In this document: piece after piece, positions 2,531 through 55,590 of the stretch
Layout: every line of letters starts with the position of its first letter
How positions within the stretch are numbered: position 1 is the stretch's first letter
Assembly: GCA_016927475.1 (NCBI GenBank)
Contig: JAFGMO010000012.1
Location: forward strand, 21,287-85,286
Source of the DNA: Candidatus Aminicenantes bacterium
GTDB taxonomy: Bacteria > Acidobacteriota > Aminicenantia > Aminicenantales > Aminicenantaceae
Direction: 5' to 3'
DNA length: 64,000 nucleotides
The notes under the pieces: model-generated
Databases searched by the model: none
What the model was told of the DNA's origin: nothing
The model's input: only the letters and a program-made list of their open reading frames with translations
Made by a program: the position numbers and the translations under genes

Positions 2531-2692
2531 ATTTGCTCCTTATTTTCAGTTTAACCTGCATTCTTTATCGATTCATGAATCGTATGGATTAAACACATTA
2601 ACCCGGTTGTTCGATAAAAGTCAAGGTAAAGGCGAGCGGGAAAACTTACCCAATATGATCATCTCAAAATTGTATTTTATGCTTCTTGTTTA

Positions 2693-5600
2693 TCATTTGA
2701 TGTTCGGGTCGATCAGGCCGGCAATGTTGTTGTCGGCAAGAAACTTGTTGAATTCCGGAAGGTCGGTCTGTAGAAGTTTTTCAAAACGGGCCATCTGATG
2801 AGCCAGTCGTTCTTTGAGAACAGCATGGACCTCTTGCTGCTGCTTATTGGGAGCAAAATCAACGCTGGTATTGAGATCTCCGGCTAAAACACTGAGCTTG
2901 CCGTAAAGTTTGTTGGGGCGGCGGAAGGATTTGGAATCTCCCTCAGCCAGAATGGGCTGGAAAAGCTCATCTTCAACACTGCAAAGTTTTTCTTCCATCT
3001 TGTCGATGGCCGAAAGGGCTTCCGCAAGGTCCGTTTCCGACGGTAACAGACTTTTGAGTTCGTGAAGCTGTCTGCGCATCCACTCGATGCGGTTGATCAT
3101 ACGTGTTACCGACGTCAGGTCTTCCCGTACTTCCAGCTGCATGGCCACCAGCTTTTGGATGTCGGAGAGAGTGCCTGCCGAGTGCGGGTCTTTTTTGATT
3201 TCCAGATTCTGGGTAAAGGTACGCCCGCCCACGGTCAATCTAACAGTGTAAGTTCCGGGCGCGGCGAGAAAACCCCGGAATCCGCCGTAAGTTCCCCAGC
3301 TGAGAATGGGATACCAACCCTGATTTTCCCAGAGATGGTGAAAGCGTTTTTCTTCGACAACATGGGGATTACCGGGTGGTTTTGTCCGTAACCTTGCCTG
3401 TTCGGCTCCGTCGTATCTGAGATTCCAGGTTATACGGTTGATTCCTTTGTTCCTTGTAACGCGGAGAGTGGTTGCCAGCCGGCCTTCGGGATCATATATT
3501 TCCGCCTGAATCAATCCGCCGGGGATATGTTTGAGATAGTAGTTGATAGTGGCTTCGGGATAGATGCTGGGACCTCCGGCGATGCTGTGCAGCCGGAAAA
3601 CAGGCCGCGGTTTGAAGAAGTGGATATCGGACTGCAGGACCTTTTCGGTCAGCTGCTGAAGCGGTGTGATATCGTCCATAATCCAGAATCCTCGTCCGTA
3701 GGTGCCGACCACCAGGTCGTTAAAATGTTCCTGAACGACCATATGATGGACCGGAGCGTGGGGAAGGTTATTTTGCAGCGAAAGCCATGTTTTTCCGTCA
3801 TTGAAGGAAATCAATAGTGCGTTTTCCGTGCCCAGATAAAGAAGCCCTTTTCGAACAGGATCTTCGTGGATCCAGTGGCAGTAGCTGAAAACGCTTTTGG
3901 GAATGCCCGTGCTCAGAGATTTCCATGTTTGACCGTAGTCCGGAGTTTTGTAGACATAAGGGTTACGGTCGTTCATCTGGTGGAAGTCGACGGTGATGTA
4001 GGCCGTTCCGGCATCGTGACGTGAGGGTTCGATATTGCTCACGGTTCCCCATTCAGGGAGGTTCGGAATATTTTTAGTAACGTTGTTCCATGTTTTGCCC
4101 CCATCCCGTGTGAGGTGAACCAGGCCGTCGTTGCTTCCCGCCCAAATGGTTCCTTCTTCCAATGGGGATTCGGCGATGGCGAAAACCACGCATCCGAATT
4201 CGACGGCCAGGTTGTCGAGAGTCATTCCCCCAGAGGGTCCCAATTTCTCCGGGTCGTTAGTGGTCAAGTCGGGGCTTATAACCTGCCAGCTGCGGCCCCC
4301 GTCGGTGGTCATGTGGACGTGCTGGCTTCCGGCGTAAACCCGGTTGTGGTCATGGGGAGAGATAGTGATGGGGAACGTCCAGTTGAACCGGTATTTGGCG
4401 GCGGCTCCGTGGGAGCCATAGATGGATTCCGGCCAAATATGGACGGTATTGATATGGCCGGTCCGGTAGTCGGCCCGCTCCAGTTGGGCGTTATAACTTC
4501 CTCCCCAGACGATATGATGATCAACAGGGTCGGGGATGATATATCCGCATTCTCCGCCTGCTGTAGCTTCCCAAAGGGTTCGAACGGGAGACCAGCCGCC
4601 TCGTCCGTGACCGACACTCGGGCCCTTGTAAGCCGAACCATCCTGCCGTCCGCCGTATACGTAATAGGGAATCTGGTTGTCTACAGCGACGTGGTACATC
4701 TGAGCGATGGGCAAATTGATACGCTGCCAGGTTTTTCCCCGGTTGAGGGTGATGATGACTCCTCCGTCATCGGAGATCATCATCCGGTCCGGAATTTTGG
4801 GGTCGGCCCACATGTCATGGCAGTCCCCGCTCCAGGGAACGGTTTCCGTGGTATAGCCTCTGTCAAAAGTCCGGCTTTGGCTGTTGGCCGCGAAGTAGAC
4901 CTCGTTTTCATCGGCCGGATTGACCATAATCCGGGAAGCGTAGTGAGGCCTTTCGTTGAGCAAACGGTTGTAGCTCATGAGCTTCCAGGTGGTCCCTCCG
5001 TCGTTCGACCGCCAGAGAACACCCCGGTTGGGATGACCTGTTTCAATCAAAGCGTAAACGACATCGGAATTGCTGGGCGCTACGGCCAGGCCGATCTTTC
5101 CCAGAGGAGGCGAAGGAAGTCCGTCACCCGTGAGTCGCTTCCATGTTTCGCCCCCGTCCGCTGATCGCCATATGCCTCCGTTGGGTCCGCCGCTTTCCCG
5201 GCCCCAGGTGCGGATGATGAGGGGCCACATTCCGGCAAAAAGAATCCGGGGATTGTTGGGATCCATGGCGATCTCGAAGCAGCCGGTGTTCTCATCGACG
5301 AATAGGACCTGTTCCCAAGTCTTTCCACCGTCTTTGGTTCGGAAAATACCGCGTTCCTTTTGGGGGCCGTAGCAGTGTCCCATGGCAGCGACATAGACGA
5401 TGTCGGGATTGCGGGAGTCGATGGCGACGCGTCCGATGCGTCCGGTTTTTTCCAGTCCCATGTGCGTCCAAGTCCGCCCGGCATCTGTCGATTTGTATAC
5501 GCCGTTGCCGATGGAGATATTGCTGCGGACAAAAGCTTCTCCCGTTCCCGCCCAGACGATATTCGGGTCGGACGAAGCGATAGCCAGGGCTCCTATGGAC

Positions 5601-38905: not shown

Positions 38906-40273
38906 ATGGAAAATCAAATTTCTATAAAAAGAGAAGGTTTTGGTACAAAATTCGGAGCTATCGCTGCGGCTGCAGGAGCAGCTGTCGGAATCGGCAACAT
39001 CTGGAATTTCCCTTATCTTACAGGTAAAAATGGTGGTGGAGCTTTCATTGTCATCTACATTTTTTGTGTTCTTTTAATCGGTATTCCGATTATGATTTCC
39101 GAATTTATTTTAGGAAAAAGAGGACAAAAGAACATGGTAGGCTCTTTTAAGACTCTTGCTCCAAACTCAAAATGGCACTGGGTAGGATGGTTCTGTGTTG
39201 TTGCGTGTTTCCTCATACTCGGATTCTACGGTGTTGTTGCAGGATGGAGTTTTGCTCATGTTGCAGAGGCTATTGGCGGCATTTTTAACGGCCTTAATGC
39301 TGAACAGATAGGGGATAAATTTACTAGACACATAACACATCCTATATGGCCTATCTTCTGGCATTTTATTTTTATGGGTGCAACTGCAGGTATCGTTATA
39401 TGCGGCATCAGAAAAGGGATCGAAAAATTCTCAAAGATTTTTATGCCGGTTCTGTTTGTTCTTCTTATGATTCTTGCTATAAGATCGATCACTCTTCAAG
39501 GGGCTTCCGATGGTCTTAAATTTATTTTTAAACCCGATTTTTCTCAGGTTAGTGCTAAAACCATACTTATTGCCTTAGGAGCTGCATTCTTCTCAATTGG
39601 TGTGGGTAACGGTGTTATGGTGACCTTCGGTTCATACCTGAGAAGAGATACAGAACTTGGAAACACAGCGTTTCAGGTTTCCATGACTGATACTATCATT
39701 GCAATTATTGCAGGTGTCGCAATTTTCCCCGCAGTTTTCGCTCTTGGATTTGAACCAACTCAGAGCTCTGGTCTTGCTTTTATTACTGTTCCAGCTGTAT
39801 TTCAGAGTATTCCAGGCGGAGCAGTAGCGCACTACTTTTTTACACTTGTCTTCTTTATCCTGCTTTCAATTGCGGCACTCACATCTTCCGTTGCAACCCT
39901 CGAGGTAGTGGTAGCTTATTTTACAGAAGAGTTTAAGGTAAAGAGAATAGGTGCTGCTTTAGTGATTTCCGGAATAATGTTTCTTATTGGTATCCCCTGT
40001 GCCCTCTCAATAGGTGCTGTACAAATTAACCTTTTTGGAGTTGGATTCTTCGATTTTATCATTTTCCTTGTTGAAGCTATCTTCCTGCCGGTTGGCGGAC
40101 TTATGATAGTTATCTTTGTAGGCTGGCGTCTCAAAAAGAAAGATATTGAAGAAACATTAAGTGCCAATGGAGTAAAAGCTTGGTATCAGGATAGTTGCCT
40201 TTTATTAATAAGATTTATTGTCCCAGTAGTTATTGTTGCAGTTCTTGTTAAAACTTTTATTGATGCTTTCTAA
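38906..40273 (+). CDS. neurotransmitter:sodium symporter (NSS/SNF, SLC6-like) family transporter
   Basis: N-terminal NSS signature (GFGTKFGAIAAAAGAAVGIGNIWNFPYLTGKNGGGAF) and 11-12 TM segments. Confidence 0.85.
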   Translation: MENQISIKREGFGTKFGAIAAAAGAAVGIGNIWNFPYLTGKNGGGAFIVIYIFCVLLIGIPIMISEFILGKRGQKNMVGSFKTLAPNSKWHWVGWFCVVACFLILGFYGVVAGWSFAHVAEAIGGIFNGLNAEQIGDKFTRHITHPIWPIFWHFIFMGATAGIVICGIRKGIEKFSKIFMPVLFVLLMILAIRSITLQGASDGLKFIFKPDFSQVSAKTILIALGAAFFSIGVGNGVMVTFGSYLRRDTELGNTAFQVSMTDTIIAIIAGVAIFPAVFALGFEPTQSSGLAFITVPAVFQSIPGGAVAHYFFTLVFFILLSIAALTSSVATLEVVVAYFTEEFKVKRIGAALVISGIMFLIGIPCALSIGAVQINLFGVGFFDFIIFLVEAIFLPVGGLMIVIFVGWRLKKKDIEETLSANGVKAWYQDSCLLLIRFIVPVVIVAVLVKTFIDAF

Positions 40274-43936: not shown

Positions 43937-44106
43937 ATCCACACTTCCTGTGCTGTGATTTCTGAAACGAACGGTGACCTGCTCCCCGACATTGCTACAC
44001 ATATAAAGTGAGAGCACCGAGCTCGATAGCCTCTGGAGCTGGTGGGCTGTATCCCAGAGAACTGTGAGGCCGGAACTTATTGTATTCCCTTCTCCAGCTC
44101 TCTGTA

Positions 44107-44184
44107 CACACATAACGTCAAAGCTCACCGGCGGCAATGGAGCGCAGCGGAATTGCCTGTCCGAGTTGATGCGTTTGTTATGTG
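44107..44184 (-). other. attC-like recombination site (attC-L2), minus-strand polarity
   Basis: Minus strand reads ACATAAC-AAACGCATCAACTC...GGCAAT/ATTGCC centre...GAGCTTTGACGTTATGT. R'' ACATAAC pairs with R' GTTATGT, with imperfect L''/L' bulges. It begins 2 nt after the TPR gene stop. Confidence 0.55.
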
Positions 44185-44185
44185 T

Positions 44186-44881
44186 TCACTTCTTTTCCAT
44201 TATTTTCTTTTTCAATTCTAATAAGTTGGCGTTATTTGGCTCCACTTCTAATCCTTCATTGATGAATTCCAAAGCCAAATCATAATTACCCTGCTCAAAA
44301 AATATTTGAGATAATCGCAAAGATTTGGCTATAGAATGCTTCTTAACATCTTCTGGGGAAACGCCACGTAAAGTTGGTTCATAAGTATCTATACTTTCCT
44401 GTGCCAATGATAGATATTTTTCAAATTTCGTCGGAGATGCAGAATACATGAGGTTATGTGTAGTGTTACCTATCATAAAATCAATAAATAATATTTTTGT
44501 GCCTTTGAAAGTAAATGTTCTCTTCACGGCTGGTTTGCCAGCAAACGCGATCTTTTCTATATTAGTATTGGTCCCGATCTTTTTTTCTATTCCTTTAATT
44601 TCTTCTAACATTTCTTCAAAGCTGTTGTAATCAAGTCCTTTTGCTAGGACTCTTAGTTCAACACCATCAGGGGCAATAAAGGCGACCTTTCCACGAGGGT
44701 CTTGCGGATATTGCTGTATCCGCCACCCATCTGGAGGAACAATTTTGAAATAACCATTAGGATCGGAATATCGACTTTTTGCGAGTGTAGCTGTTTTGCT
44801 CTGCGCATTAGCGCTTCCGATTAGCTGAAAAACAAAAAACAATGAAATAATTGTAACACTTGCGAACTTGAATTTTTTCAT
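44186..44881 (-). CDS. TPR-repeat lipoprotein/secreted protein (integron cassette L2)
   Basis: Signal peptide MKKFKFASVTIISLFFVFQLIGSANAQ and C-terminal TPR-like helices. ATG 44881 with AAGGAG lies directly after the R' box of attC-L1. Low GC (~40%). Confidence 0.55.
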   Translation of the reverse strand: MKKFKFASVTIISLFFVFQLIGSANAQSKTATLAKSRYSDPNGYFKIVPPDGWRIQQYPQDPRGKVAFIAPDGVELRVLAKGLDYNSFEEMLEEIKGIEKKIGTNTNIEKIAFAGKPAVKRTFTFKGTKILFIDFMIGNTTHNLMYSASPTKFEKYLSLAQESIDTYEPTLRGVSPEDVKKHSIAKSLRLSQIFFEQGNYDLALEFINEGLEVEPNNANLLELKKKIMEKK

Positions 44882-44895
44882 GTTTATCTCCTTTT

Positions 44896-44981
44896 CACAT
44901 AACACGGGCGTTGAGCTGCGAGGGCCGCGCCTACTCTGAGACGGGGCGCGGACCTCGTCTGCTCCAACGCCTTGTTAGCCG
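44896..44981 (-). other. attC-like recombination site (attC-L1), minus-strand polarity
   Basis: Minus strand reads GGCTAACAAGGCGTTGGAGC...CCGCGCC/GGCGCGG centre...GCTCAACGCCCGTGTTATGT. L'' GGCGTTGGAGC pairs with L' GCTCAACGCC leaving one extrahelical G. The 5' arm resembles the aadA attC (CTAACAA..CGTT..AAGC). R' is GTTATGT. Confidence 0.6.
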
Positions 44982-44990
44982 ACAGCGCAC

Positions 44991-45848
44991 CTACTCGAAG
45001 CCCTGAGGCTCGTACTGCGGGGTCCAGGGCGCAACGCCCTCAACCGCACGTAGAGTGACTCGAAACCGCTGCGGGTAACTGGGATCCCTGCGTGACTTCG
45101 GAATCTCGACGATCGCTACTCCGCGGGACAGCATCGTCTGAAACGTGTAGGCGAGGGTGTTTTCCACGAAGGCTAGCACGTGTCGGCACATGGCAGCCAC
45201 CCACTGGGACACCGGCACGCCATCAACAGGCGGCTCGATCATCGACACTCCCCCCTCAGGCGTAGGCGGGTACTTGACGTCCGGGAGGACCCAGCCCTCA
45301 TGCTCGAGAGCATTGCGACGATCAATGAGACCTTGGGACCAGTCTTGTCGGGCAAGCCGGAAGTACTCGACCAGAGGTTCGTGGCCGGCGGAAGCCAGTA
45401 CAGTCATGCGGCGCTCGAAGTTCGCATCATTAGCGAAGAAGCCCCCTATGTCCAAGCCGAGATGCGCCGTCACCTTTTGCAGCGACTTTGCAGCCCGGAC
45501 CGCGCTATTCAGGAAGCGAGATAGGAGGTCACGGAGGTCATGGTGAATAGCTTCGTGGATCTCGATAGCGTTTCGTTGGCGGCCTACGATCTCGCCTGAT
45601 AGCAGCTTCGCGCGGTGACCCTCTACAAGGGTGTGCAGGGTTTTTGCAGCCTTTCGCATCGCGAACATCTCGTTCAACACAGCCTCGTACAACTCGTCGA
45701 ATGCCAGGCGGCGTGCCTCGCGCTCTCGGTGGGAGATATCGAGAGCGTTGAGGTAATGATCGCGGAGTTCCATCATGCCGCTCATCAAGCGTGCGATGAA
45801 GGGTTTGGCAGTGCCCTCGTCAAGCGCCTTCTGGATCGTCCACTTCAT
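44991..45848 (-). CDS. hypothetical protein (integron cassette L1), high GC
   Basis: 285-aa ORF with no family recognised; there is an Rx5H stretch (RQRNAIEIHEAIHH) reminiscent of HEPN. ATG 45848 lies 5 nt from the GTTAGCC core that terminates the left 140-bp repeat. Confidence 0.4.
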   Translation of the reverse strand: MKWTIQKALDEGTAKPFIARLMSGMMELRDHYLNALDISHREREARRLAFDELYEAVLNEMFAMRKAAKTLHTLVEGHRAKLLSGEIVGRQRNAIEIHEAIHHDLRDLLSRFLNSAVRAAKSLQKVTAHLGLDIGGFFANDANFERRMTVLASAGHEPLVEYFRLARQDWSQGLIDRRNALEHEGWVLPDVKYPPTPEGGVSMIEPPVDGVPVSQWVAAMCRHVLAFVENTLAYTFQTMLSRGVAIVEIPKSRRDPSYPQRFRVTLRAVEGVAPWTPQYEPQGFE

Positions 45849-45855
45849 GCTCGGC

Positions 45856-45996
45856 TAACTATTAATATACAGCATGCTGTATTTGACACAAATTTCCCTC
45901 AATTAACGTCGTATATTATGTGATATCATCGGATATCCCCGCAAAATTGCTGTCTTAGTTTATAATTATCCTGCTTATATTGCAAGTCGTATATTC
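45856..45996. repeat. left copy of a 140-bp inverted repeat pair (candidate attI/Pc module)
   Basis: Reverse-complement of 46643-46782 with about 8 mismatches. Its outer end is GTTA (GTTAGCC on the minus strand). It contains the 18-bp palindrome TATACAGCATGCTGTATA and an outward TATATT. Confidence 0.85.
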
Positions 45997-46028
45997 GATG
46001 GACCTGTTATCCTCTTGAGAGGAATCAA

Positions 46029-46513
46029 TTGAACAATCAACACAAAAATCTTGAGGAGTTTGAAGATTTTATCAAGCGTTTCCATCTTGTTCCCCTAGAG
46101 AAAGCCCGATTTTATGTTTATTGGGTAGAACGATTTATGAAATATTATAAATATAGAACTTCCAAAACGGTGGGAAATATCCTAATGCCAACAAGGAATG
46201 GCCCTGGCAGTGGGTATTTCCCTCGAAAAGCCTTGTGGTGCATCCTAAGAGCGGAAAGCTCTTGCGTCATCATATCCAACCAAGCTTGCTTCAGAGAAAG
46301 ATCAAAAAAGCTGTAAGAAATTCTGATATTTCCAAACCGGCAAGCTGTCATACGCTTCGGCACAGTTTCGCCACTCATCTGCTGGAGGCAGGACATAATA
46401 TCCGAACGATTCAGGAACTCATGGGACATAAAAACGTCAATACCACGATGATATACACTCATGTTGTTCGTAAGAGCTATTCGGATGTTTCCAGCCCTTT
46501 GGACAAACTATAG
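46029..46513 (+). pseudogene. intI: integron integrase (IntI-type tyrosine recombinase) pseudogene with internal deletion
   Basis: The N-terminal segment (EKARFYVYWVERFMKYY) matches the IntI SAM-like N-domain (EQAYVHWVRAFIRFH). A C-terminal segment in another frame ([17 protein letters not shown]...[72 protein letters not shown]...VSSPLDKL) aligns with IntI1 residues ~230-320, including the catalytic Tyr. About 160 central residues, including the catalytic R/K box and the IntI-specific insert, are missing. Confidence 0.7.
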
Positions 46514-46642
46514 AGAAATGATGGCGTGCAGCTAGAGAAAAAAGGCTTCTATCAATTTCTCATCCTAGGATTTTTGTGACAAATTGAAAAGAGTATTTTT
46601 TAGAAATTATTTAGAAAACCTTGAAGGATATTAAAGGAGTTG

Positions 46643-46782
46643 GATATACGACTTGCAATATAAGCAGGATAATTATAAGCTAAGACTGCAATTTTGTGGG
46701 GATATTCGATGATATCACATAATATACGACGTTAATCGAGGGAAATTTGTGTCAAATACGGCATGCTGTATATTAATAGTTA
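46643..46782. repeat. right copy of the 140-bp inverted repeat pair (candidate duplicated attI/Pc module)
   Basis: See the left copy. The outer end is GTTATGT at 46779-46785, where homology with the left copy stops. Confidence 0.85.
46746..46774 (+). promoter_or_regulatory. outward-facing promoter-like element in the right repeat (TTTGTG-N17-TATATT); the mirror copy on the minus strand at 45864-45892 faces cassette L1
   Basis: TATATT at 46769-74 is 34 nt upstream of the DUF4145 ATG, with RBS AGGAATGGAGG. The mirror TATATT at 45869-64 lies 15 nt upstream of ATG 45848. Confidence 0.35.
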
Positions 46783-46808
46783 TGTGAGAGAGGAATGGAG
46801 GCGATACT

Positions 46809-47411
46809 ATGGATATCAATGTGAAGCATTCATGGAAGGCCATCGTAGGCCTATCCTCGCGGGGGTATACGTGCGGATACTGCAATCGCCCCCTCGCGTC
46901 CGAGAAGGGATGGCATTCGAACAATTCCGGTTTCATCTATGTCTGCCATCACTGTACGCGCCCCACCTTCTTCGACTTTCACGGTGAGCAGATCCCGGGT
47001 GTTATGCACGGGAATCCGGTCGGTGACATAACCGACAAGTCAGTTTCCGCCCTTTACGATGAAGCTCGCAGCACAACTCAGGCGAACGCCTACACTGCCA
47101 CGGTTCTCTGCTGCCGGAAGCTCTTGATGCACGTTGCCGTTTCAAAGGGTGCCAAGCTTGGAGAGAGCTTCGCGTTCTACGTCACCTACCTTGCAGAGAA
47201 AAACTTCGTTCCTCCCGACGCAATGGGGTGGATCGATCATATCCGCAAGAAGGGGAACGAAGCGAATCATGAGATCACCATCATGAAAAAGGACGATGCA
47301 GAAGAACTGCTGTCCTTTACGGAGATGCTGCTGAGGATTATCTACGAGTTCCCTGCGATGGTCGCGAAGAAGTACCAGCAAGGACAACAAGGGAAGGGGA
47401 AGACCACATAA
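46809..47411 (+). CDS. zinc-ribbon + DUF4145 domain protein (integron cassette R1)
   Basis: N-terminal CxxC...CxxC (CGYCNRP...CHHCTRP). The C-terminal region matches DUF4145 features (VLCCRKLLMHVA...HIRKKGNEANHE). Confidence 0.55.
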   Translation: MDINVKHSWKAIVGLSSRGYTCGYCNRPLASEKGWHSNNSGFIYVCHHCTRPTFFDFHGEQIPGVMHGNPVGDITDKSVSALYDEARSTTQANAYTATVLCCRKLLMHVAVSKGAKLGESFAFYVTYLAEKNFVPPDAMGWIDHIRKKGNEANHEITIMKKDDAEELLSFTEMLLRIIYEFPAMVAKKYQQGQQGKGKTT

Positions 47412-47427
47412 CAATCGAATCGAACGC

Positions 47428-47496
47428 GACTTAGTGTTAACCGCGCCGCTTCGCTCTGCGGCTAACACTAAGCGGTTCATTCGAGGCGTTATGTCC
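47428..47496 (+). other. candidate short or degenerate attC-like site (attC-R1)
   Basis: Imperfect palindrome CTTAGTGTTAACC-GCGCCGCTTCGCTCTGCG-GCTAACACTAAG (11/12 stem), whose centre GCCGCTTCGC..GCGGCT(T)AAC resembles the aadA attC centre. It is followed by GTTATGT (47489-95), the same R' as attC-L1 and L2. The full fold is unclear. Confidence 0.3.
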
Positions 47497-47531
47497 ATAA
47501 TTGTCATGAATGAATCGAATTATGAGGTTTG

Positions 47532-50500
47532 ATGGAGCAAAAGCGCAAAATAGATAAAGTCAGGGCGTCACGGGACGGCCATGAGTTTCATGAGGCCTGG
47601 ACGGCACGTAAGGCGACTCAGTTGCTATGGCCCGATGCCGAGTTGACTGCTATCGCCGTTGAAGGGCTTTCACCTTCTGATCAGGCTGGGGCGCCCGCGG
47701 CTACGATCGAAGTCGCTGACTTGACGTTCTATTATAAAGGTCCCCCGAATTTCAAGGATTCCGCCCGAACAACAATTGCCCAATTCAAATACTCCATTGC
47801 TGATCATAACAAGGACTTCCGTACCTCTCACGCAAAGAAGACAGTAAAAAAGTTTGGCGTGACCTATCGCTCATATAAACGAAAGTACGGTGCCAAAGCG
47901 GTTGATAATAAACTCGAATTTCAGCTCGTCACGAACCAGCCAATCAGCGAATCATTGCTTCAGGCCATTGAGGCAACGGCAACGGGATCGAGGATTAGCG
48001 GTGATGTTAAGGCGCAGGCAGAGCAGTTAAAGACGGCTTCCGGCTTGTCGGGAAAACCACTGGCTGCATTTGCGAGAAAGATGAAAATTATTGGCCGCTC
48101 TGGGAGCTTGCCGCAAACAAAGGGTGAGCTTGCCAGCATGCTCGTCGACTGGTCTGCCACGAGTGATCCGATTGCTTCCGCCCGGCTCGGGAAGCTTAGA
48201 GAACTTGTACGTGACAAGGCTGGTTATGCCGGTACTAACCGAAATCTGATCAGACGCACTGACGTGCTGGCCGCTCTTAAGATCGGTGACCCGAAAGACT
48301 TACTTCCCTGTGAAGCGGCTCTCGTCGATGTCGGCAAGGTACTGGAGCGGGAGCAGCTCCGCGAGGTCATGAACCGTATCGGAAGTACGTCAACGCCGCT
48401 TCTTATTCATGCGACGGGTGGCGTGGGCAAGACAGTCTTTATGGATTCGCTCGCCTCGAAGATCGCCTCAGACCACGAGATTGTTTTCTTCGATTGTTTT
48501 GGAGGCGGTGCTTACCGCTCTCCAGAAGACGCGCGACACTTACCCAAGAAGGGGCTCATTCATATTGCGAATACACTGGCATTTCGCGGCCTCTGCGATC
48601 CGATGCTCCCGGACAGTCCTGATGTGCACACTTTACTCAGCACGTTCCGCCGCCGCCTTACGCAGTGCCTGAACACCATCTCACGCATGATGCCAGGACG
48701 CAAGCTGGCGATTTTTATTGATGCCATCGACAATGCAGCCTTTGCTGCTGGCCAGGCAAGCGAAGACTGTTTTCCCATTAAGCTGCTGGAGACCCTCGAT
48801 ACGGAACCGATTGATGGCGTAAACCTTATCGTGTCCTGCCGTACAGAACGCAAGCCGAAAACCTATGCCAAGCTCGATGAATTCGAACTGTACCCTTTTA
48901 CCAAGGATGAAACAGCCACGTTTTTGCACGCGCGACTGAAGAGCGTCACAACCATAGAAATAAACGTTGCGCAAGCCCGGTCAGGCGGCAATCCGCGTGT
49001 GCTGGATTACCTGGTCAAGGCAGGTCGCGGCCTTCTTGATCCATCCGAGATCAACAAAGACATCGAGCTGGATGATCTGATTCAACAAAGAATCACGGAT
49101 GCGCTCTCTTTGGCCACAAAGCAGGGTTATAAGGAGAAGGACCTCAGTGCCTTTCTTGCAGGGCTCGCGGTGCTTCCTCCGCCGGTGCCTAAAGATGAGT
49201 ATGCCGCCGCTCATGGTATAGAGCTCGCCGCCATTGAGAGCTTTGCTTCGGACCTTAGCCCTCTACTAGAGCGCACCAATCACGGGCTCATGTTCCGTGA
49301 TGAGCCAACGGAAACACTGATCCACGAGCAATACGCGACATCACGTGATGCGCTTGAGCGTGTCGCATCCAATCTCCTTGCTCGCCAGGATGCGTCGGTA
49401 TATGCAGCCCGTGCGCTTCCGCGTCTGCTACACGAACTCGATGATAATGAGCGGCTGTTCGCACTTGCTTTCGATGATCGTATTCCTGCCTCAATTACCA
49501 GCACAGTTGGCAAGCGCAATATTCAATATGCCCGGCTTAAGGCAGCCACTTTGCACGCGGCTCTCAAGGTTGACTACAACAGCCTTGTACGGCTTCTCGT
49601 CGAGCTATCAACCTTAGCTGAGGTTGATCAGCGTGGAGCCAATTATCTACTGAAACATCCTGATCTTGTTGTTGCTGCCGAAGATGTTGACGCCCGGCGG
49701 CGACTATTTGAAATAAGAACGGCTTGGCCAGGAACACGACATGCGCGTCTTGCTATCGTCAATGTTTTATCGGGTGATCCGACAGAGGCGACCCGTCATG
49801 CACATGCAAATGAAGAGTGGATAAAGCATTACCGGCGCACAGAGCGAAACGATTTTGAGCGTGAACCAATTCCTGATCAGGCCGACATCGCTGCCACAAG
49901 TTTCTTTCTGATCTCGGAAGATCGCACAGAAAATGCGGCCGGCTACCTCACAGGTTGGCGGGACTGGTATGCCTTTGAAGTTTCTCAGCTCGTCCTCGGA
50001 TATGCGCATCTTGCGAGCTTGTTAGGAACTCAGCCCGCTCAACGGACTGAACAATTCATTGATGCGCTCTCCAGTATCGGTCCGATTGCGGCTGCTTTGT
50101 CTTTTCAAGAGCTGGCGAACTCTAAATGCAAGCCGCTTTGCGTCAAACTCGCTGCTCTCTGCAAGAAGGAGACAAAGCTTTACTTGCCGCAAAAAAGTTA
50201 CTCGCGCCCAAAAAACTACGAACTCGAAGACGGTCTAAGGAAGTCGGCCGCCATCGCGCTCTCATTGGGCCTCATCACTGAGGCACAATCTATTTCACTA
50301 AGAGCACGGCATGATCGGCCCGGTATCTGGGCATACCGTGACGCGTTCAACCACACAGAAGTATTCGCTAATATATTCCGAGTTGCCCTGCTTTCTGCTG
50401 CAAAGAAGCGCGCTATTCACGAGAAGGAACTGCTGCCAAAAGAGCTCGTATCGGTCTGCGCGCGCATTCCAAAGACCATTTCTGGAAAAACCTTCCGAGA

Positions 50501-53500
50501 AAAGGCCAAGGAAGAGCTCTCTAAGCTTCCGCGCAAGCCGCGTTACGAAGATGGGCAAACCAAGAACGTGGCGGCTAATGCCATTAGCTATGATGAGCAG
50601 CAGACGGCAGAGCGCTTTCTTGGCATCCGCCTGGAGCCGCTGCTTACTCTCACTGAGGCACTGTCGGCTGCACTCGCAGCATCGGCGCGGACCATTGATA
50701 AGCGCTTTGTCGAGCTTGTGGAAGCCTGGGAGCAGGCGCGAAAAAATCGCGATCACTACCGGGTTGAGGATATCGATCCCTTCTTTCAATTCTTGGGTCT
50801 CGACACTGTTCTCTTCATATTGTGGTCCCGTAGCGAGCTGAAGCCACAATCCATCGAGCGCATGCTGACAGCCGTACATGCCCACATGAGCAATGCCAGT
50901 GATTTGATTCGTATTGTCGCGATTCTATCGCAGCGAACCCCGCTGCACTCGATTGCGGGCGAGCAGGCCGTAAAGGCGCGCGAGATGATTAAGAAAGAGG
51001 ATGAAGTTACCTATCGGGCGTCTCTCTATGGTGCTCTTGGCCGGGCAATCCTTCCTGCCAGCCTTGATGAGGCTGCCTCCTATTTCCGGGATGGTCTGGA
51101 GCAGATGGATGCCATTGGTTCGGGTGATTACCAGTTCACGAATGAACTGCTCTTGTTCGCATCGGAGATGAAAGGTGACGAACTGGAAGAACGTGACTTT
51201 CACACGCTGAGCAATATCTGCGAACTCAATATGGGGGACGAGCCCGAGAAATTTTTCTGGGGTGCGTACGGTCGCGGCATGGCAAAGGCAGCCGGGATGC
51301 GTGGCCTATCCAAGCTCAGTCGCTGGGATGACCGCAACAGGATAGCTCTGGACAACACACTTCTCACCTATCTTACGGGGCTGCTCGAAGCGGGAAAGAT
51401 CGATCCAAAGGGCGCGCTTTGTCTAAACCGCCTCGCCAATCCGGTTGAATATTTCTATGCCGGGACGAAGGAGTTTGCCAAAGCGTTGCGCGCCCAGGCA
51501 GGGCCGGATGCTGAAGTGATTACAGAGCTGATAACACAGTTCGAGGATGACAATCCGACGATAGCGAGTGACGAGACTGTCGAGACACTTTATGCGCTGG
51601 CTGACGAAGCGCTGGGTGCATCGCATGATATAACGAAGCACCTCAAAGCCGCGCGGGACAGATACGAGACCGCAAGGCAAGGACGCAATACTGCGTATGG
51701 TAGTAGCAGCGACTTCGATCCGAAGATGCATAGAGAAGCTGCCAAACGTGACAATGCAAACCGGGAGGCACTCGCACGTATAGCTGAAGCGACGGACCCG
51801 ACCGACGAGGCATCGCTTGTAAAGGCCATCGACGAATTCAATGCACTTGGGAACATGTATGACCTAAAAGGTGGCTTCTTTTCCTCGCTGCGAGCCAAAG
51901 TGCCCTTTGCTGCGCGCGGCCAGTATGTGCGCAATGTTGCCAGTCTGGAGCATCTGTTCTTCTATTGGAAATTCGCAGAACTGAAAGATGCAAAGGAAGC
52001 CTGGGGCGAATCATCCGTAGCGCTTGCTGGTGTTTATAGGAGCCTGGCACAGCCGCTAATTCTTGCCCATGCCGATGATTTGGTCAATGACGGTCGGTTC
52101 TCGGGTTCGAGCATCAAGGAAATATCTGAGTTTACGGGTGTGTCTATGGCCGAACTCGTTCTTGAGGTGATAAAGGTCTTTTCACGTCCTGATAGCACGG
52201 CCGGTGGTTCGGTATGGCTTGCGCTTGCCAATTTCATATGTCCAGCAGCGGATGAAGGGCAGGGGCAACTTGCCCTGAAGCGCCTACTGTCTGGCGACTC
52301 GGCACGGATTGCCGACAACGTAACAGACGGTCCATGGAAAGCAGGCTGCTACCCCGCGGATGTCTTCGCCGAAATTGCTGCTGGGCTAATATGGCGTGTC
52401 CTCGGTTCGCCCCATGCGACTGACAGATGGCGCGCGGCTCACTGCATACGCCGATTTGCAAAGTTCGGGCGCTGGGACATTGTTGACACGGTTGTTGCCG
52501 CCTTTGATACGAAGACTGCTGAACCGTTTCAGGCACCAGAGCTTGTGTTCTATTACCTGCATGCACGGTTATGGCTCCTGATAACCCTGGCGCGGGCCGC
52601 GATCGATCATCCCGATCAGGTGGCGCGTTACAAGGATCTACTCTTGGCTGTCATCATGGAAAAAGATGAGCCGCATGTGCTTAAGCGCCACTTTGCCGCC
52701 AAAGCGCTTCTTGCCTGTATAGAACGCAGCAAACTGGTGCTTGACCCAGCCACGCTCAAGATTGTGCGTAATGCCGACAATTCCCCGAATCCGCGTTTAC
52801 GAAAGAAGATCCGCAACGGCGGCGGCTTCTATCAGGGCCGTCCGAAATCAGTATCCAAGCCTTCCTTTCGTTTTCATCTGGAGTATGACTTTAATAGGCA
52901 TGACGTTGATAACCTCGGCCGTGTCTTCGGCAAGGGCTGCTGGGAAGTTGATGACATGATGTCAAGCATCGTACAAAAGATTGATCCGTCAATGACGCAC
53001 ATGTATGAGGATGGTGACCGCGAGTACCGCGGGCAAAATTCTCATGGAATAACGACTCGCTTTCACGGCTATGGGCAACAGCTCGGCTGGCATGCACTAT
53101 TCATTGCTGCAGGCAAGCTGCTTGCCGCCAATCCTGTAACCAACGACTGGTGGTACGAGGACGACCCGTGGGGAGAGTGGCTTGGCCGCTACGTGCTTAC
53201 GCGAAAGGATGGATTGTGGCTATCCGATGGAACAGACAGGACTCCAGATGACGCATCTGTGAGGCTGCTTGAAACAAAGAAGAAGGGGCTTACGATAACC
53301 GGCGATCAGAAGAAGATTATGGGGCTTGCCGGCATAGATATTGAGAAAGGCATTGGTGAAGAACTGATTGTTCAGGGCAGATGGTATTCATCCGATGGTG
53401 TTGAAATCGGATTATCCTCTGCGCTTGTTCCACCCAAAAAGGCCGAGCAGTTTGCAAGAAAGCTCATTCGCGAAAAGCCGATACTGGCGTGGGTGCCTGC

Positions 53501-54005
53501 TTTCGAGGACGGCGAAGACGATGAAGAATATCTTCATAGTGATAAGAAGGGGTACTCACCTTGGATTGTCTGTCCATCCGGAGAAACACGTTTGGATGAA
53601 CATGATCCATATGGCGTTTCGGTTGCCAATCTTCGGCCGCGCCTTGCGCAAGATTATTCAGAGTTCTGTAAGCTGAAACAGCAAGATGAGTTCGGACGTT
53701 TCTGGAATAACAATCGTGGGACGCTTTCACTTCTAGCCCAAGCCTGGGGGCGCGATGAAACCAATCGAGAAGACGGCCCTCATCCGGGACTGCGGCTTCT
53801 CTGCAAGTCAAGTGTACTTAAGAATTTATTAATGAAGTATGACAGGGAACTGCTATTGCTCTTCAAACTTCAGCGTTATGAGAAAGAAAGTTATCGAAGC
53901 AGCGGACATTTTTTGCATTCTATCGGTGTAGTGAGGATTGATAAGTTGCTCAGTTTGGAGTACGTTAAGGGTCGCGTAAACTACTTACACAAGTCGGAGT
54001 GGTAG
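47532..54005 (+). CDS. giant STAND/NACHT-like P-loop NTPase (2157 aa): N-terminal unknown domain + NTPase + about 1500-aa helical repeat region; candidate defence protein (integron cassette R2)
   Basis: Walker A LLIHATGGVGKTVF (nt ~48409-48450), Walker B LAIFIDAIDNA (nt ~48707-48739), sensor-like LIVSCRTE and GxP-like ARSGGNPRVLDYL. The C-terminus is long and alpha-helical. GC ~57%. ATG 47532 has GAGG upstream. Confidence 0.6.
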   Translation: MEQKRKIDKVRASRDGHEFHEAWTARKATQLLWPDAELTAIAVEGLSPSDQAGAPAATIEVADLTFYYKGPPNFKDSARTTIAQFKYSIADHNKDFRTSHAKKTVKKFGVTYRSYKRKYGAKAVDNKLEFQLVTNQPISESLLQAIEATATGSRISGDVKAQAEQLKTASGLSGKPLAAFARKMKIIGRSGSLPQTKGELASMLVDWSATSDPIASARLGKLRELVRDKAGYAGTNRNLIRRTDVLAALKIGDPKDLLPCEAALVDVGKVLEREQLREVMNRIGSTSTPLLIHATGGVGKTVFMDSLASKIASDHEIVFFDCFGGGAYRSPEDARHLPKKGLIHIANTLAFRGLCDPMLPDSPDVHTLLSTFRRRLTQCLNTISRMMPGRKLAIFIDAIDNAAFAAGQASEDCFPIKLLETLDTEPIDGVNLIVSCRTERKPKTYAKLDEFELYPFTKDETATFLHARLKSVTTIEINVAQARSGGNPRVLDYLVKAGRGLLDPSEINKDIELDDLIQQRITDALSLATKQGYKEKDLSAFLAGLAVLPPPVPKDEYAAAHGIELAAIESFASDLSPLLERTNHGLMFRDEPTETLIHEQYATSRDALERVASNLLARQDASVYAARALPRLLHELDDNERLFALAFDDRIPASITSTVGKRNIQYARLKAATLHAALKVDYNSLVRLLVELSTLAEVDQRGANYLLKHPDLVVAAEDVDARRRLFEIRTAWPGTRHARLAIVNVLSGDPTEATRHAHANEEWIKHYRRTERNDFEREPIPDQADIAATSFFLISEDRTENAAGYLTGWRDWYAFEVSQLVLGYAHLASLLGTQPAQRTEQFIDALSSIGPIAAALSFQELANSKCKPLCVKLAALCKKETKLYLPQKSYSRPKNYELEDGLRKSAAIALSLGLITEAQSISLRARHDRPGIWAYRDAFNHTEVFANIFRVALLSAAKKRAIHEKELLPKELVSVCARIPKTISGKTFREKAKEELSKLPRKPRYEDGQTKNVAANAISYDEQQTAERFLGIRLEPLLTLTEALSAALAASARTIDKRFVELVEAWEQARKNRDHYRVEDIDPFFQFLGLDTVLFILWSRSELKPQSIERMLTAVHAHMSNASDLIRIVAILSQRTPLHSIAGEQAVKAREMIKKEDEVTYRASLYGALGRAILPASLDEAASYFRDGLEQMDAIGSGDYQFTNELLLFASEMKGDELEERDFHTLSNICELNMGDEPEKFFWGAYGRGMAKAAGMRGLSKLSRWDDRNRIALDNTLLTYLTGLLEAGKIDPKGALCLNRLANPVEYFYAGTKEFAKALRAQAGPDAEVITELITQFEDDNPTIASDETVETLYALADEALGASHDITKHLKAARDRYETARQGRNTAYGSSSDFDPKMHREAAKRDNANREALARIAEATDPTDEASLVKAIDEFNALGNMYDLKGGFFSSLRAKVPFAARGQYVRNVASLEHLFFYWKFAELKDAKEAWGESSVALAGVYRSLAQPLILAHADDLVNDGRFSGSSIKEISEFTGVSMAELVLEVIKVFSRPDSTAGGSVWLALANFICPAADEGQGQLALKRLLSGDSARIADNVTDGPWKAGCYPADVFAEIAAGLIWRVLGSPHATDRWRAAHCIRRFAKFGRWDIVDTVVAAFDTKTAEPFQAPELVFYYLHARLWLLITLARAAIDHPDQVARYKDLLLAVIMEKDEPHVLKRHFAAKALLACIERSKLVLDPATLKIVRNADNSPNPRLRKKIRNGGGFYQGRPKSVSKPSFRFHLEYDFNRHDVDNLGRVFGKGCWEVDDMMSSIVQKIDPSMTHMYEDGDREYRGQNSHGITTRFHGYGQQLGWHALFIAAGKLLAANPVTNDWWYEDDPWGEWLGRYVLTRKDGLWLSDGTDRTPDDASVRLLETKKKGLTITGDQKKIMGLAGIDIEKGIGEELIVQGRWYSSDGVEIGLSSALVPPKKAEQFARKLIREKPILAWVPAFEDGEDDEEYLHSDKKGYSPWIVCPSGETRLDEHDPYGVSVANLRPRLAQDYSEFCKLKQQDEFGRFWNNNRGTLSLLAQAWGRDETNREDGPHPGLRLLCKSSVLKNLLMKYDRELLLLFKLQRYEKESYRSSGHFLHSIGVVRIDKLLSLEYVKGRVNYLHKSEW

Positions 54006-54089
54006 GCATCTAAAGTCCACATCTGACCGATAAACTCGCGGAACGAAACGGGAAATTGTTGAAAATCCCAAGCACACGATGCTTGATTA

Positions 54090-54150
54090 GAACATAACCA
54101 ACATTTTGGAGCCGACCGAAAAACCTGGCGGCTCAAAATGAACGTTAGAT
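54090..54150 (+). other. attC-like recombination site (attC-R2), about 60 bp
   Basis: ACATAAC-CAACATTTTGGAGCC-GACCGAAAAACCTGGC-GGCTCAAAATGAAC-GTTAGAT. L'' has an extra G relative to L' (extrahelical), and R' GTTAGAT is identical to the aadA1 R'. It is followed by AAGGAG and ATG 54166. Confidence 0.6.
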
Positions 54151-54165
54151 GAAAGGAGATTTGTC

Positions 54166-54801
54166 ATGAAAAAGGCTTATCTATTATTGGTTCTATCCAG
54201 CAAGAAAGCTATTCTTTACTTTTTCGCTCTCTCCACTATTTCCTTAATAATCAATCCGCTCTATTCCTTGTCAGCCGAAGGTCCTATGGCAGATATTTTA
54301 GATATAGACGGTGCGTCCATATCGGCGGAATTTATCCAGGCTAATTGGGTGGCACCAGGCGACTGGAGGCGTGGTCTCATGCCAGCAGAGGCCCCTTCTA
54401 AATTAACCTCATATTTTGAGATAAAAATAACGGTCAAAGAGGGCAGAGTTATAACCTATGAAACAGTCAATATCCCTTTTAATGATATTAGATCCATTGA
54501 GGTTGATTGGTACAGAATTGACAAAAAAAGAAATACGATAACATTCAATATGCGCAATGGAAAAGCGATCATCTATGTTAAGGAATATGACAATGCAAGC
54601 CATGGAACGTACATAAAGAAAGACCCAAATGGGAATATTTTGTCCAAAGTACCTGCTCCAGATTCACGTCTTACAATCGGAGAATACCAGGGAGTTCCAT
54701 TTGAGTTTGTTGGATTTAAAGGCAGGGCAATAATGAAATCGGGAAAAATCGGTGAATTCTCTATTCCTTACCGGGACGTTAAAAAGTTAGTATTTAAATA
54801 G
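54166..54801 (+). CDS. secreted hypothetical protein (integron cassette R3), low GC
   Basis: Signal peptide; no family recognised. It lies between attC-R2 and attC-R3. Confidence 0.4.
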   Translation: MKKAYLLLVLSSKKAILYFFALSTISLIINPLYSLSAEGPMADILDIDGASISAEFIQANWVAPGDWRRGLMPAEAPSKLTSYFEIKITVKEGRVITYETVNIPFNDIRSIEVDWYRIDKKRNTITFNMRNGKAIIYVKEYDNASHGTYIKKDPNGNILSKVPAPDSRLTIGEYQGVPFEFVGFKGRAIMKSGKIGEFSIPYRDVKKLVFK

Positions 54802-54804
54802 TAT

Positions 54805-54870
54805 TCATCTAACAACGGCATTAAGGCCGACGGTAAAAAAGCCGCCGCGCCTTATGCCGCAGCGTTATGC
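54805..54870 (+). other. attC-like recombination site (attC-R3)
   Basis: ATCTAACAACGGCATTAAGGCCGAC...GCCTTATGCCGCAGCGTTATGC. R'' ATCTAAC is a perfect RYYYAAC and the 5' arm is close to the aadA attC (GTCTAACAATTCGTTCAAGCCGAC). L'' carries an extra A. R' GTTATGC overlaps the ParE stop on the opposite strand. Confidence 0.6.
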
Positions 54871-55161
54871 GGAATCAGACGGCTCAACAATCTCCTGTGC
54901 TCCGTGCCAGACAGCGACAATCCAAATCGTCTTCTTCTCAACGCGATAAAAGAAACGATATGGATTGATCATAATTTCGCGATGCGCCAATTCCGGGAAC
55001 TCAGGAATCACTCGACCAGACTCCGGAAATCTTTCTAGACGTCGGAGAACCCGTTCGGACCTCTCACGAAAACGCTGTGCTGCGGAAGGCTTATCTCTAC
55101 GGATGTATACAAGTGCCTCAAGAAATTGCAGACGAGCCGAGGGCGTGAACCGAACCCTCAC
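54865..55161 (-). CDS. parE: type II toxin, RelE/ParE family (cassette R4)
   Basis: RelE/ParE fold signature (PSARLQFLEALVYIRRD...RFFYRVEKKTIWIVAVWHGAQ). Confidence 0.85.
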   Translation of the reverse strand: MRVRFTPSARLQFLEALVYIRRDKPSAAQRFRERSERVLRRLERFPESGRVIPEFPELAHREIMINPYRFFYRVEKKTIWIVAVWHGAQEIVEPSDSA

Positions 55162-55439
55162 GCCTCACCCTCCCGAAGAAGGGCATCCGCCTCTCGAAGC
55201 ACGCTATCTAGCGAATATCCTTTGCCCTTTGCGATCTCCCTTTCCCCCAACGCGAGCAGGCGCAGTAACTCCCGCTCATGCTGTGAACGTTCGTAGGCTT
55301 CGAGGTTCAACAGAACAGCAGTCGCCCGCCCTCTCTGGGTTATAACAAGGGGTTCCTCGGATTTTTGAAGCTCTTTCAGTACAGACGCTGCGTCCTGCCG
55401 CAGGTCTGTAATAGGAATTATTTTTGGAACTTTCGCCAT
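55158..55439 (-). CDS. phd: type II antitoxin, Phd/YefM family
   Basis: Phd/YefM N-terminal motif (IPITDLRQDAASVLKELQKSEEPLVITQRGRATAVLL). 4-nt overlap with parE. Confidence 0.85.
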   Translation of the reverse strand: MAKVPKIIPITDLRQDAASVLKELQKSEEPLVITQRGRATAVLLNLEAYERSQHERELLRLLALGEREIAKGKGYSLDSVLREADALLREGEA

Positions 55440-55513
55440 ATGACACCTCCAATGGTACGCTTAATAATACCGTATGGCGTATCATAAATCAACGTATTAT
55501 CTCCGCATAACGC

Positions 55514-55590
55514 GTGCATAACCGGTAAAAACGTTTGGCGCGGCCTTTGTACCAAAGGGCGTGACGAGCGGTTTTGTCCGTGGTTATGCG
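55514..55590 (+). other. attC-like recombination site (attC-R4), probable distal end of the right cassette array
   Basis: GCATAAC-CGGTAAAAACGTTTGG-CGCGGCCTTTGTACCAAAGGGCG-...CGGTTTTGTCCGTG-GTTATGC. R''/R' pair as TAAC/GTTA, with a central CCTTTG/CAAAGG stem and bulged arms. Confidence 0.45.

Follow-up and report, generated by a model that had tools for sequence, protein, structure and literature searches.

How does one chromosomal locus come to hold two sets of recombination sites that point away from each other? By the usual description, an integron has one integrase, one attI site and one cassette array. The locus considered here lies in a 64,000-nucleotide stretch of a Candidatus Aminicenantes contig (JAFGMO010000012.1, positions 21,287 to 85,286), which is called the window below and is numbered from its first letter. 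The original prediction, made from the letters of this stretch, had proposed six attC sites in it, two on the minus strand (L1 and L2) and four on the plus strand (R1 to R4), but had overlooked their layout, in which two arrays diverge from a duplicated and inverted attI around a decayed integrase gene, intI. In our analysis, the region 44110-55589 is very probably a sedentary chromosomal integron whose decayed intI lies between two inverted copies of attI, each of which heads its own cassette array.

Five of the proposed sites (L1, L2, R1, R2 and R3; Table 1) are genuine integron attC sites of canonical geometry, located at the 3' end of co-oriented open reading frames (ORFs). All six window sites carry inverse cores at their two ends, R'' (...AAC) and R' (GTT...), and each of the six window cassettes opens with six bases (TTNNNN) that complement its own R'' box exactly: TTAGCC with GGCTAAC, TTATGT with ACATAAC in three cassettes, TTAGAT with ATCTAAC, and TTATGC with GCATAAC. 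This boundary rule would follow if each cassette had once been a circle cut between the G and the TT of the core. The five sites are all in the expected orientation, and the stop codon of the ORF upstream of attC-R1 sits within the R'' box (ACATAAC) of that site.

These sites were scored with a covariance model built from 50 sites (57-81 nt) of other loci, with a hand-assigned structure and no window sequence. Sites were harvested by walking outward from each attI core in public contigs under the boundary rule, which gave 82 distinct attC sites. When both strands of the window were scanned with filters off, L1, L2, R1, R2 and R3 were the only matches with E < 0.01, and none other fell below E = 2. 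The five align across the full model with their unpaired bases at consensus positions 16 and 23, which R4 does not, and their bottom strands fold about equally to or better than their top strands (for R2, -11.6 vs -11.8 kcal/mol). The z-scores in Table 1 compare the bottom strand, folded as single-stranded DNA, with shuffles. The covariance check that the original prediction had proposed, carried out here with a substitute model from other loci, thus gave 23-50 bits for five sites, and R4 failed at 11 bits. L1, L2, R2 and R3 lie within 1-2 nt of where they had been placed and on the same strands. R1 is a real attC site as well, but the description of it as weak does not hold (40.7 bits), and 47428-47496, where it had been drawn, is the inner palindrome only of a site that spans 47406-47494. 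The R' boxes (GTTATGT, GTTAGAT and GTTATGC) read as had been claimed; a ribosome-binding site (RBS) with an ATG does follow at 44881, 47532 and 54166; the unpaired G/C and A of the 5' arm are seen in the model alignments; and the parE stop codon on the minus strand (54865-54867) falls within the R' box of R3 (54864-54870). The claim that each site starts 2-10 nt after an upstream stop breaks down for R2, which begins 86 nt after the stop.

The family to which these sites belong shows the pairing expected of attC. AAC and GTT are invariant across the 50-site alignment. In this set, harvested partly by folding, 81% of paired cells are paired compared with 63% in shuffles, 16 of 22 pairs change on both sides, and the covariation score is 0.396 vs 0.138, a value that 0 of 500 shuffles reached; slid partners gave at most 0.105. 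Conservation of the pairing, the second check that had been proposed, was found. The consensus reads gcCTAACAA-6 nt-G/C-cAgCgG-A-C, and is paired over most of the stretch that separates the R and L boxes. The likeness to aadA noted in the original prediction is reasonable. In attC-aadA7, the canonical attC site of mobile integrons, the order is xxxTAAC, AA, 6 nt, an unpaired base, 6 bp ending CCG/CGG, an unpaired A, and C. We take positions 16 and 23 of our family to be the unpaired positions of that site, with which it presumably also shares the spacing of the boxes, the variable tip and the GTTRRRY-like R' box. The family differs from attC-aadA7 in its mostly paired R-L stretch, in a first unpaired top-strand base that is mostly G and not C, and in R boxes that are often RYRYAAC (ACATAAC). 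A strict RYYYAAC...GTTRRRY search of the window returned one chance pair only, because the R boxes of the window are mostly of this RYRYAAC form (e.g., ACATAAC), and four of the six window sites escaped a crude ungapped-arm filter. A scan of the window at Rfam gathering thresholds gave no matches and was uninformative about attC; Rfam may have no family for such sites.

The same attC arms also occur with different cassettes, as had been proposed for metagenomes. The subfamily of attC-L2, which is the least strongly supported of the five genuine sites, is abundant: sites 74-93% identical to it (87% over the full length in locus L013) adjoin other genes in more than 20 other loci, and the gene of cassette L2 has no homologue in the loci that share attC-L2-like sites. 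Overall, the cores, the palindrome, the position, the boundary rule, the model scores and the adjacent intI remnant with attI bear out the reading of the hairpins as attC sites. One weak match to the model was found elsewhere in the window, at 39330-39401 on the plus strand (10.3 bits, E 3.3, ACATAAC...GTTATAT). It lies in or beside the SNF symporter gene, 5 kb past the left array, and is probably due to chance.

What lies between the two arrays? An inverted repeat (45839-45994 and 46644-46799, 91% complementary) surrounds the intI remnant, with attI arms of about 148 nt, of which the second is inverted and starts 130 nt downstream of the intI stop codon. The two arms are near-identical up to ...TATATTAATAGTTA and then part, the left continuing with GCC... 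and the right with TGT...; both end in the crossover core, ...TATATTAATAG with the crossover point before TT. The left core, GTTAGCC, fits the R'' box of the first left cassette (GGCTAAC), and the right core, GTTATGT, fits that of the first right cassette (ACATAAC). Since the homology of the arms stops at the GTT core and the cassette boundaries fit, we read both arms as attI sites that received cassettes. From their sequence, we infer that the window carries two attI sites that would both have been active, each heading its own array. The left array has the regular integron layout, its sites L1 and L2 being on the minus strand opposite a plus-strand intI; the right array has the inverted-integrase layout, with R1-R3 on the plus strand downstream of intI. 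A conserved TTGTGT-16 nt-TATATT, seen by eye just before the core in the arms, is only suggestive of an outward promoter.

The gene between the arms is a pseudogene. Compared with a 421-aa relative, the window intI keeps only residues 1 to about 35 (to near 46165) and 310-421 (46175-46510), in different frames; about 270 codons are missing, among them the region of the catalytic Arg and Lys, and the frame is shifted. The window therefore lacks an intact intI with the full catalytic set, which is found in its relatives L046, L016 and L099.

Is this arrangement peculiar to the window? A 24-base arm pattern was present in at least 120 metagenome stretches as well as 13 genome contigs, for the most part labelled Candidatus Aminicenantes or Aminicenantales, and all counts of arms, pairs and loci given here refer to loci among the matches listed. 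The protein closest to the window intI fragment (99% identity) is also labelled Candidatus Aminicenantes. With a 148-nt arm profile, 152 arms were found, and the inner side could be assessed for 71 of them; 46 of these 71 form 23 divergent pairs, with the arms 106-1934 nt apart. Of 79 model-supported attC sites around the arm pairs, 72 face away from the arm next to them. Outward sites are present on both sides in 13 paired loci, and likewise in L133, from a named Aminicenantales genome bin, and in L127. The inner segment is of full length (1426-1434 nt) in five pairs, where it holds exactly one intI, with the distal arm 107-130 nt past the stop codon.

On the evidence of their contigs, three of the loci hold an uninterrupted IntI reading frame within the arm pair. 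That of L046 (89-1384) is complete, with 431 aa, and its alignment with VchIntIA (PDB 2a3v; E 1.9e-75) runs end to end through the integron-specific insertion and the catalytic motifs; the stop-free IntI cores of L016 and L099 match TIGR02249 over its full length with 423 and 420 bits (cut-off 265; positions 2-315 of 315 for L016). The IntI of the Aminicenantes clade has about 100 extra amino acids at its N-terminus (431 aa in L046 vs 320 in VchIntIA), which resemble a second SAM-like N-domain. In L016 (intI at 2587-3849) a stop codon falls in this extension and the core is open; the window region 46029-46165 corresponds to the same N-terminal part. Across the lineage the arms are better preserved than the integrase: in L097 (4531-4925) and L127 (1595-1990) the arms are 106-110 nt apart and intI is wholly deleted, and both arms and both arrays are intact. 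The same arm family is found on three contigs (L130, L133 and L134) of a single genome bin, Candidatus Aminicenantales MFD01647 bin15, and with several platforms per bin a supply of IntI in trans is plausible.

A long inverted repeat around intI was found in none of three loci with 63-69% identical IntI fragments, and the two-armed layout as a general feature of related integrases is ruled out by these three more distant loci, which have no second arm. L139 (6001-12030), in a genome of 4.7 Mb whose intI fragment is 63% identical, has at least seven attC sites on the intI strand, downstream of two insertion sequence (IS) fragments; this locus could be another inverted-integrase integron or a rearranged one. 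In two contigs, L024 and L030, two platforms stand 3-6 kb apart with converging arrays. The idea that these convergent arm pairs come from circular contigs was discarded, as there is no terminal overlap and each end has its own intI fragment, which makes them separate platforms.

Has the second attI been used, and how old is it? Through AATAGTT, L016, L091 and L046 have identical distal arms, which become unrelated from the next base on, and the four bases after GTT vary widely across loci at both arm types. Because identical distal arms are joined to unrelated first cassettes, the second attI has been used; the variation at the distal arm is what repeated attI x attC insertion would be expected to produce, and neither a copied promoter nor the end of a transposon would give it. 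Arms of the same locus are 0.77-0.94 identical (usually 77-90%), against a mean of 0.83 between loci, and each arm generally has a closer relative elsewhere. The nearest neighbour is of the same kind (5' side or 3' side of intI) for 72 of 83 arms, a figure inflated by near-duplicate loci. As arms are generally closer to the arms of other loci than to their own partners, the duplication is old and inherited. The window pair, 94% identical, is the sole pair that exceeds its best outside match, which suggests that the window arms underwent recent gene conversion. General concerted evolution of the two arms was rejected, since the within-locus range given above brackets the between-locus mean and the window alone is exceptional. 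Flipping of the intI segment between the arms found no support either, since arms with a first cassette in common never differ in their side of intI (0 discordant pairs). The lineage also has single-armed relatives of both kinds and orphan arms.

Could such a layout have arisen without a working second attI? Two ordinary integrons might have come to lie tail to tail in a one-off rearrangement, with one intI lost by deletion. The large internal deletion in the window intI, the unusual likeness of the window arms (94%) and the closeness of platforms in some contigs (L024, L030 and L040) would suit such an event. We consider it very unlikely, because the same layout recurs in 23 loci, because the five full-length inner segments hold exactly one intI with the distal arm 107-130 nt past its stop codon, because no homology to the 5' end of intI is found inside the distal arm, and because the duplication of the arms is old and inherited. 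It is also conceivable that the arms are the terminal inverted repeats of a recombinase-bearing mobile element that inserts into cassette arrays at GTT, as a recombinase gene between inverted repeats of about 148 nt looks transposon-like and the flanks change exactly at the ends of the repeats. Insertion into an array would, however, leave collinear attC sites, whereas 72 of 79 sites diverge from the platform; the first cassette at each arm fits the boundary rule with its own attC, as an attI x attC crossover predicts; and the enzyme is a full integron integrase, by both the TIGR02249 match (423 bits) and the alignment with VchIntIA. A mobile element of this kind is highly improbable.

The preservation of the arms in L097 and L127, where intI is wholly deleted, suggests a function independent of the local intI, and from this one might argue that the distal arm is no recombination site itself, only a copied promoter or regulatory stretch, and that the right array arose otherwise. 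This explanation, which we hold to be quite unlikely, leaves unexplained why unrelated cassettes follow identical distal arms precisely from the base after GTT, why the core tails behind GTT vary widely from locus to locus at either type of arm, and why the first six bases of window cassette R1, TTATGT, complement its own R'' box. Nor would the hairpins readily be repetitive extragenic palindromic (REP)-like repeats or terminators that end in AAC and GTT by chance. The lack of Rfam matches and the folds of L2 and R4, which are weakly better than shuffles, are in keeping with that idea, yet the model scores, the orientation, the covariation of the family, the adjacent intI remnant and attI arms, the boundary rule and the absence of terminator-like T tracts leave it scarcely credible.

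Several observations weigh against our own reading of the locus as a two-armed integron. At R4, which the original prediction had ranked as an attC site equal to the others, the model matched on the minus strand via the R boxes alone (11.1 bits, E 2.1), the plus strand folds at -22.3 vs -13.4 kcal/mol for the minus strand, the reverse of the other five sites, and no relatives were found among about 140 related loci. It is best called an attC-like hairpin of either orientation. The covariation statistics lean towards structure, because the harvest rule included folding. A sigma-70 promoter and terminator scan of the platform gave none in the arms, with a consensus that may not be that of the phylum. 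The taxonomic assignment of the arm-bearing loci rests on record labels, and the loci with intact intI are metagenome contigs whose recombination is judged from sequence. In 15 of the 23 pairs intI is internally deleted, and deletions of different sizes, or stop codons, damage most copies; since most copies are thus pseudogenes, much of the observed layout may be relics.

R4 has a possible counterpart in other loci. Plus-oriented arrays often end against a minus-oriented attC (L003, 13997-14098; L029, 6997-7127; L046, 6895-6996; L024, 3167-5906), and R4 may be the remnant of a meeting point between opposed arrays. A second full-length tyrosine recombinase (329-353 aa; Phage_int_SAM_4 and Phage_integrase) is encoded in L003 (15402-16391) and L046 (8228-9289), about 7 kb into the distal array and among attC sites of both orientations.

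How would a two-armed integron work? An IntI tetramer would pair an attC site's folded bottom strand with double-stranded attI and swap one strand between the G and the TT of the core, and replication would resolve the product. By this usual attI x attC reaction, either attI could take up a cassette at its first position. The integrase could have come from the local intI before its deletion, or from another platform in the genome acting in trans. The cassettes would be promoterless, each ending in an attC hairpin, and if each arm carries an outward promoter, the two first-position cassettes would be expressed. With its integrase dead, the arrays of the window are frozen unless IntI comes in trans.

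The divergence of the arrays has a consequence for replication. Folding of attC is governed by the orientation of the array relative to replication, and for 25 of 30 sedentary integrons it is the leading-strand template that carries the bottom strands, an arrangement that limits excision (PMC5371416). As the two arrays of the window diverge, they cannot both have their bottom strands on the leading-strand template. The GC skew is positive along nearly the whole window (the cumulative skew runs from 0.1 to 2.65), and judged by this skew the plus strand would be the leading strand by the criterion of PMC5371416. By the same token, the right array would be in the usual stable orientation and the left array would be recombination-prone. 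Because of the divergence, the attC bottom strands of one array would be on the lagging-strand template, where excision and shuffling are favoured, and those of the other on the leading-strand template, where stable storage is. It is tempting, although doubtful, to see in the two-armed layout a working, selectively maintained design, with a fast-turnover array, an archive array and two expressed first cassettes, and an intermediate from which the regular layout could pass to the inverted-integrase layout by loss of an arm.

Table 1. Features of the two-armed integron of Candidatus Aminicenantes, in window coordinates
Feature	Position	Strand	Details
Cassette L2	44116-44902	-	ORF 44186-44881, 231 aa; signal-peptide-like N-terminus, weak TPR match; RBS AGGAGA before ATG 44881
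attC-L2	44110-44183	-	R'' ACATAAC (44183 to 44177), R' GTTATGT (44116 to 44110); 23.3 bits, E 0.0026; fold z = -1.7; last site of the left array
attC-L1	44897-44980	-	R'' GGCTAAC, R' GTTATGT; 49.6 bits, E 1.3e-9; fold -30.4 kcal/mol, z = -7.1
Cassette L1	44903-45858	-	ORF 44991-45848, 285 aa; no family match
attI arm, 5' side of intI	45852-45998	-	core GTTAGCC (45859 to 45853); arm profile 153.6 bits; heads the left, "regular" array
intI pseudogene	46029-46513	+	TIGR02249 positions 225-315 of 315 only, E 2.3e-40; tblastn against L016 IntI; translations
Second attI arm	46640-46785	+	core GTTATGT (46779-46785); arm profile 149.7 bits; heads the right, "inverted-integrase" array
Cassette R1	46780-47488	+	ORF 46809-47411, 200 aa; DUF4145 (Pfam E 5.8e-10), weak PD-T7-4 (PADLOC E 7e-7)
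attC-R1	47406-47494	+	R'' ACATAAC, R' GTTATGT; 40.7 bits, E 1.7e-7; fold -27.4 kcal/mol, z = -6.6
Cassette R2	47489-54144	+	6.66 kb; ORF 47532-54005, 2157 aa; Avs3a-like anti-phage STAND NTPase
attC-R2	54092-54150	+	R'' ACATAAC, R' GTTAGAT; 37.0 bits, E 1.4e-6; fold z = -5.1
Cassette R3	54145-54864	+	ORF 54166-54801, 211 aa; predicted secreted, no family match
attC-R3	54807-54870	+	R'' ATCTAAC, R' GTTATGC; 41.5 bits, E 1.1e-7; fold z = -3.2
Toxin-antitoxin cassette	54865-55583		parE 54865-55161 (-), phd/yefM 55158-55439 (-), reading against the array
R4 candidate hairpin	55516 (or 55505)-55589	either	GCATAAC (two copies) and GTTATGC; 11.1 bits, E 2.1 (minus strand); bottom-strand fold z = -1.9

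What do the arrays carry? The left array consists of two cassettes and the right array of four (Table 1). The first left cassette, L1, has its ATG 5 nt after the attI core (45843-45860) and no ribosome-binding site inside the cassette. Its protein has a full-length homologue in L079 with 36% identity, which supports the start codon, and its translation would need signals in attI or a leaderless transcript. The protein of cassette R2 matches NCBIfam NF041816 (E 4e-233 over residues 10-820) and PADLOC Avs3a (E 1e-202); its first ~810 residues match Avs3a and its C-terminal ~1300 residues are without a match. This cassette is far bigger than typical integron cassettes, and no internal attC was found inside it by the model scan of the window. 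In the toxin-antitoxin cassette, the two proteins match Pfam ParE_toxin (E 7.8e-16) and PhdYeFM_antitox (E 1.3e-18). The GC content is about 56% near L1, about 42% near L2 and R3 and 51-54% across R2, with flanks of about 43-48% (44000-55000), which fits cassettes of different origins. The flanking genes are ordinary chromosomal ones, OmpA-family, DUF5916 and SNF symporter genes on one side and ornithine cyclodeaminase and amino-acid permease genes on the other. Chromosomal integrons are known to carry both defence genes and toxin-antitoxin pairs (bioRxiv 10.1101/2024.07.02.601686; PMC13108822), and cassette R2 adds an unusually large (6.66 kb) Avs3-like gene to the defence systems known as integron cassettes.

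In many respects the element resembles sedentary chromosomal integrons such as the Vibrio cholerae superintegron or those of Xanthomonas with decayed intI. It lies between housekeeping genes, intI is frequently lost, the relatives L046 and L016 have an IntI-type tyrosine recombinase with the integron-specific insertion, attI is followed by promoterless cassettes that end in attC, and the cassettes include a toxin-antitoxin pair and anti-phage defence genes (bioRxiv 10.1101/2024.07.02.601686). In contrast to these integrons, it has two inverted attI sites and two diverging arrays instead of one, its arrays are short (two and four cassettes) and include one cassette of 6.66 kb, and the IntI of its clade carries the N-terminal extension of about 100 aa. 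Like inverted-integrase integrons of the Treponema denticola type, its right array has attC sites on the intI strand, downstream of the 3' end of intI; unlike them, it combines this with a regular array to the other side of that intI. According to a recent account, only two integron structures are known, the regular and the inverted-integrase one (PMC13323075, 2026), and both layouts in one element, as in the window and at least 23 relatives, are not listed there. In the full-text literature, which covered few papers from subscription journals, we found no published description of two attI sites or of diverging arrays around one intI. Provisionally, therefore, the two-armed platform is undescribed, and the sites and the integron type themselves are already known.

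With attC clusters and merely an intI pseudogene, the window also resembles a CALIN, a cluster of attC sites lacking an integron integrase in the definition of IntegronFinder (PMC4889954), and automatic annotation would probably call it one. Unlike in a CALIN, both attI sites and the integrase remnant are recognisable, and close relatives keep an uninterrupted intI frame. Programs built for one array per integrase, or made to discard integrons of unexpected orientation, would mis-split or drop such elements.

What would the finding mean for integrons? If one integrase does serve two inverted attI sites, the integron platform would be more plastic than has been assumed. If the two-armed lineage is as described here, it would offer a concrete path between the two known integron layouts. 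The two-armed layout, if true, would also bear on the trade-off between mobility and storage of cassettes, as both orientations relative to replication (PMC5371416) would stand side by side in one element.

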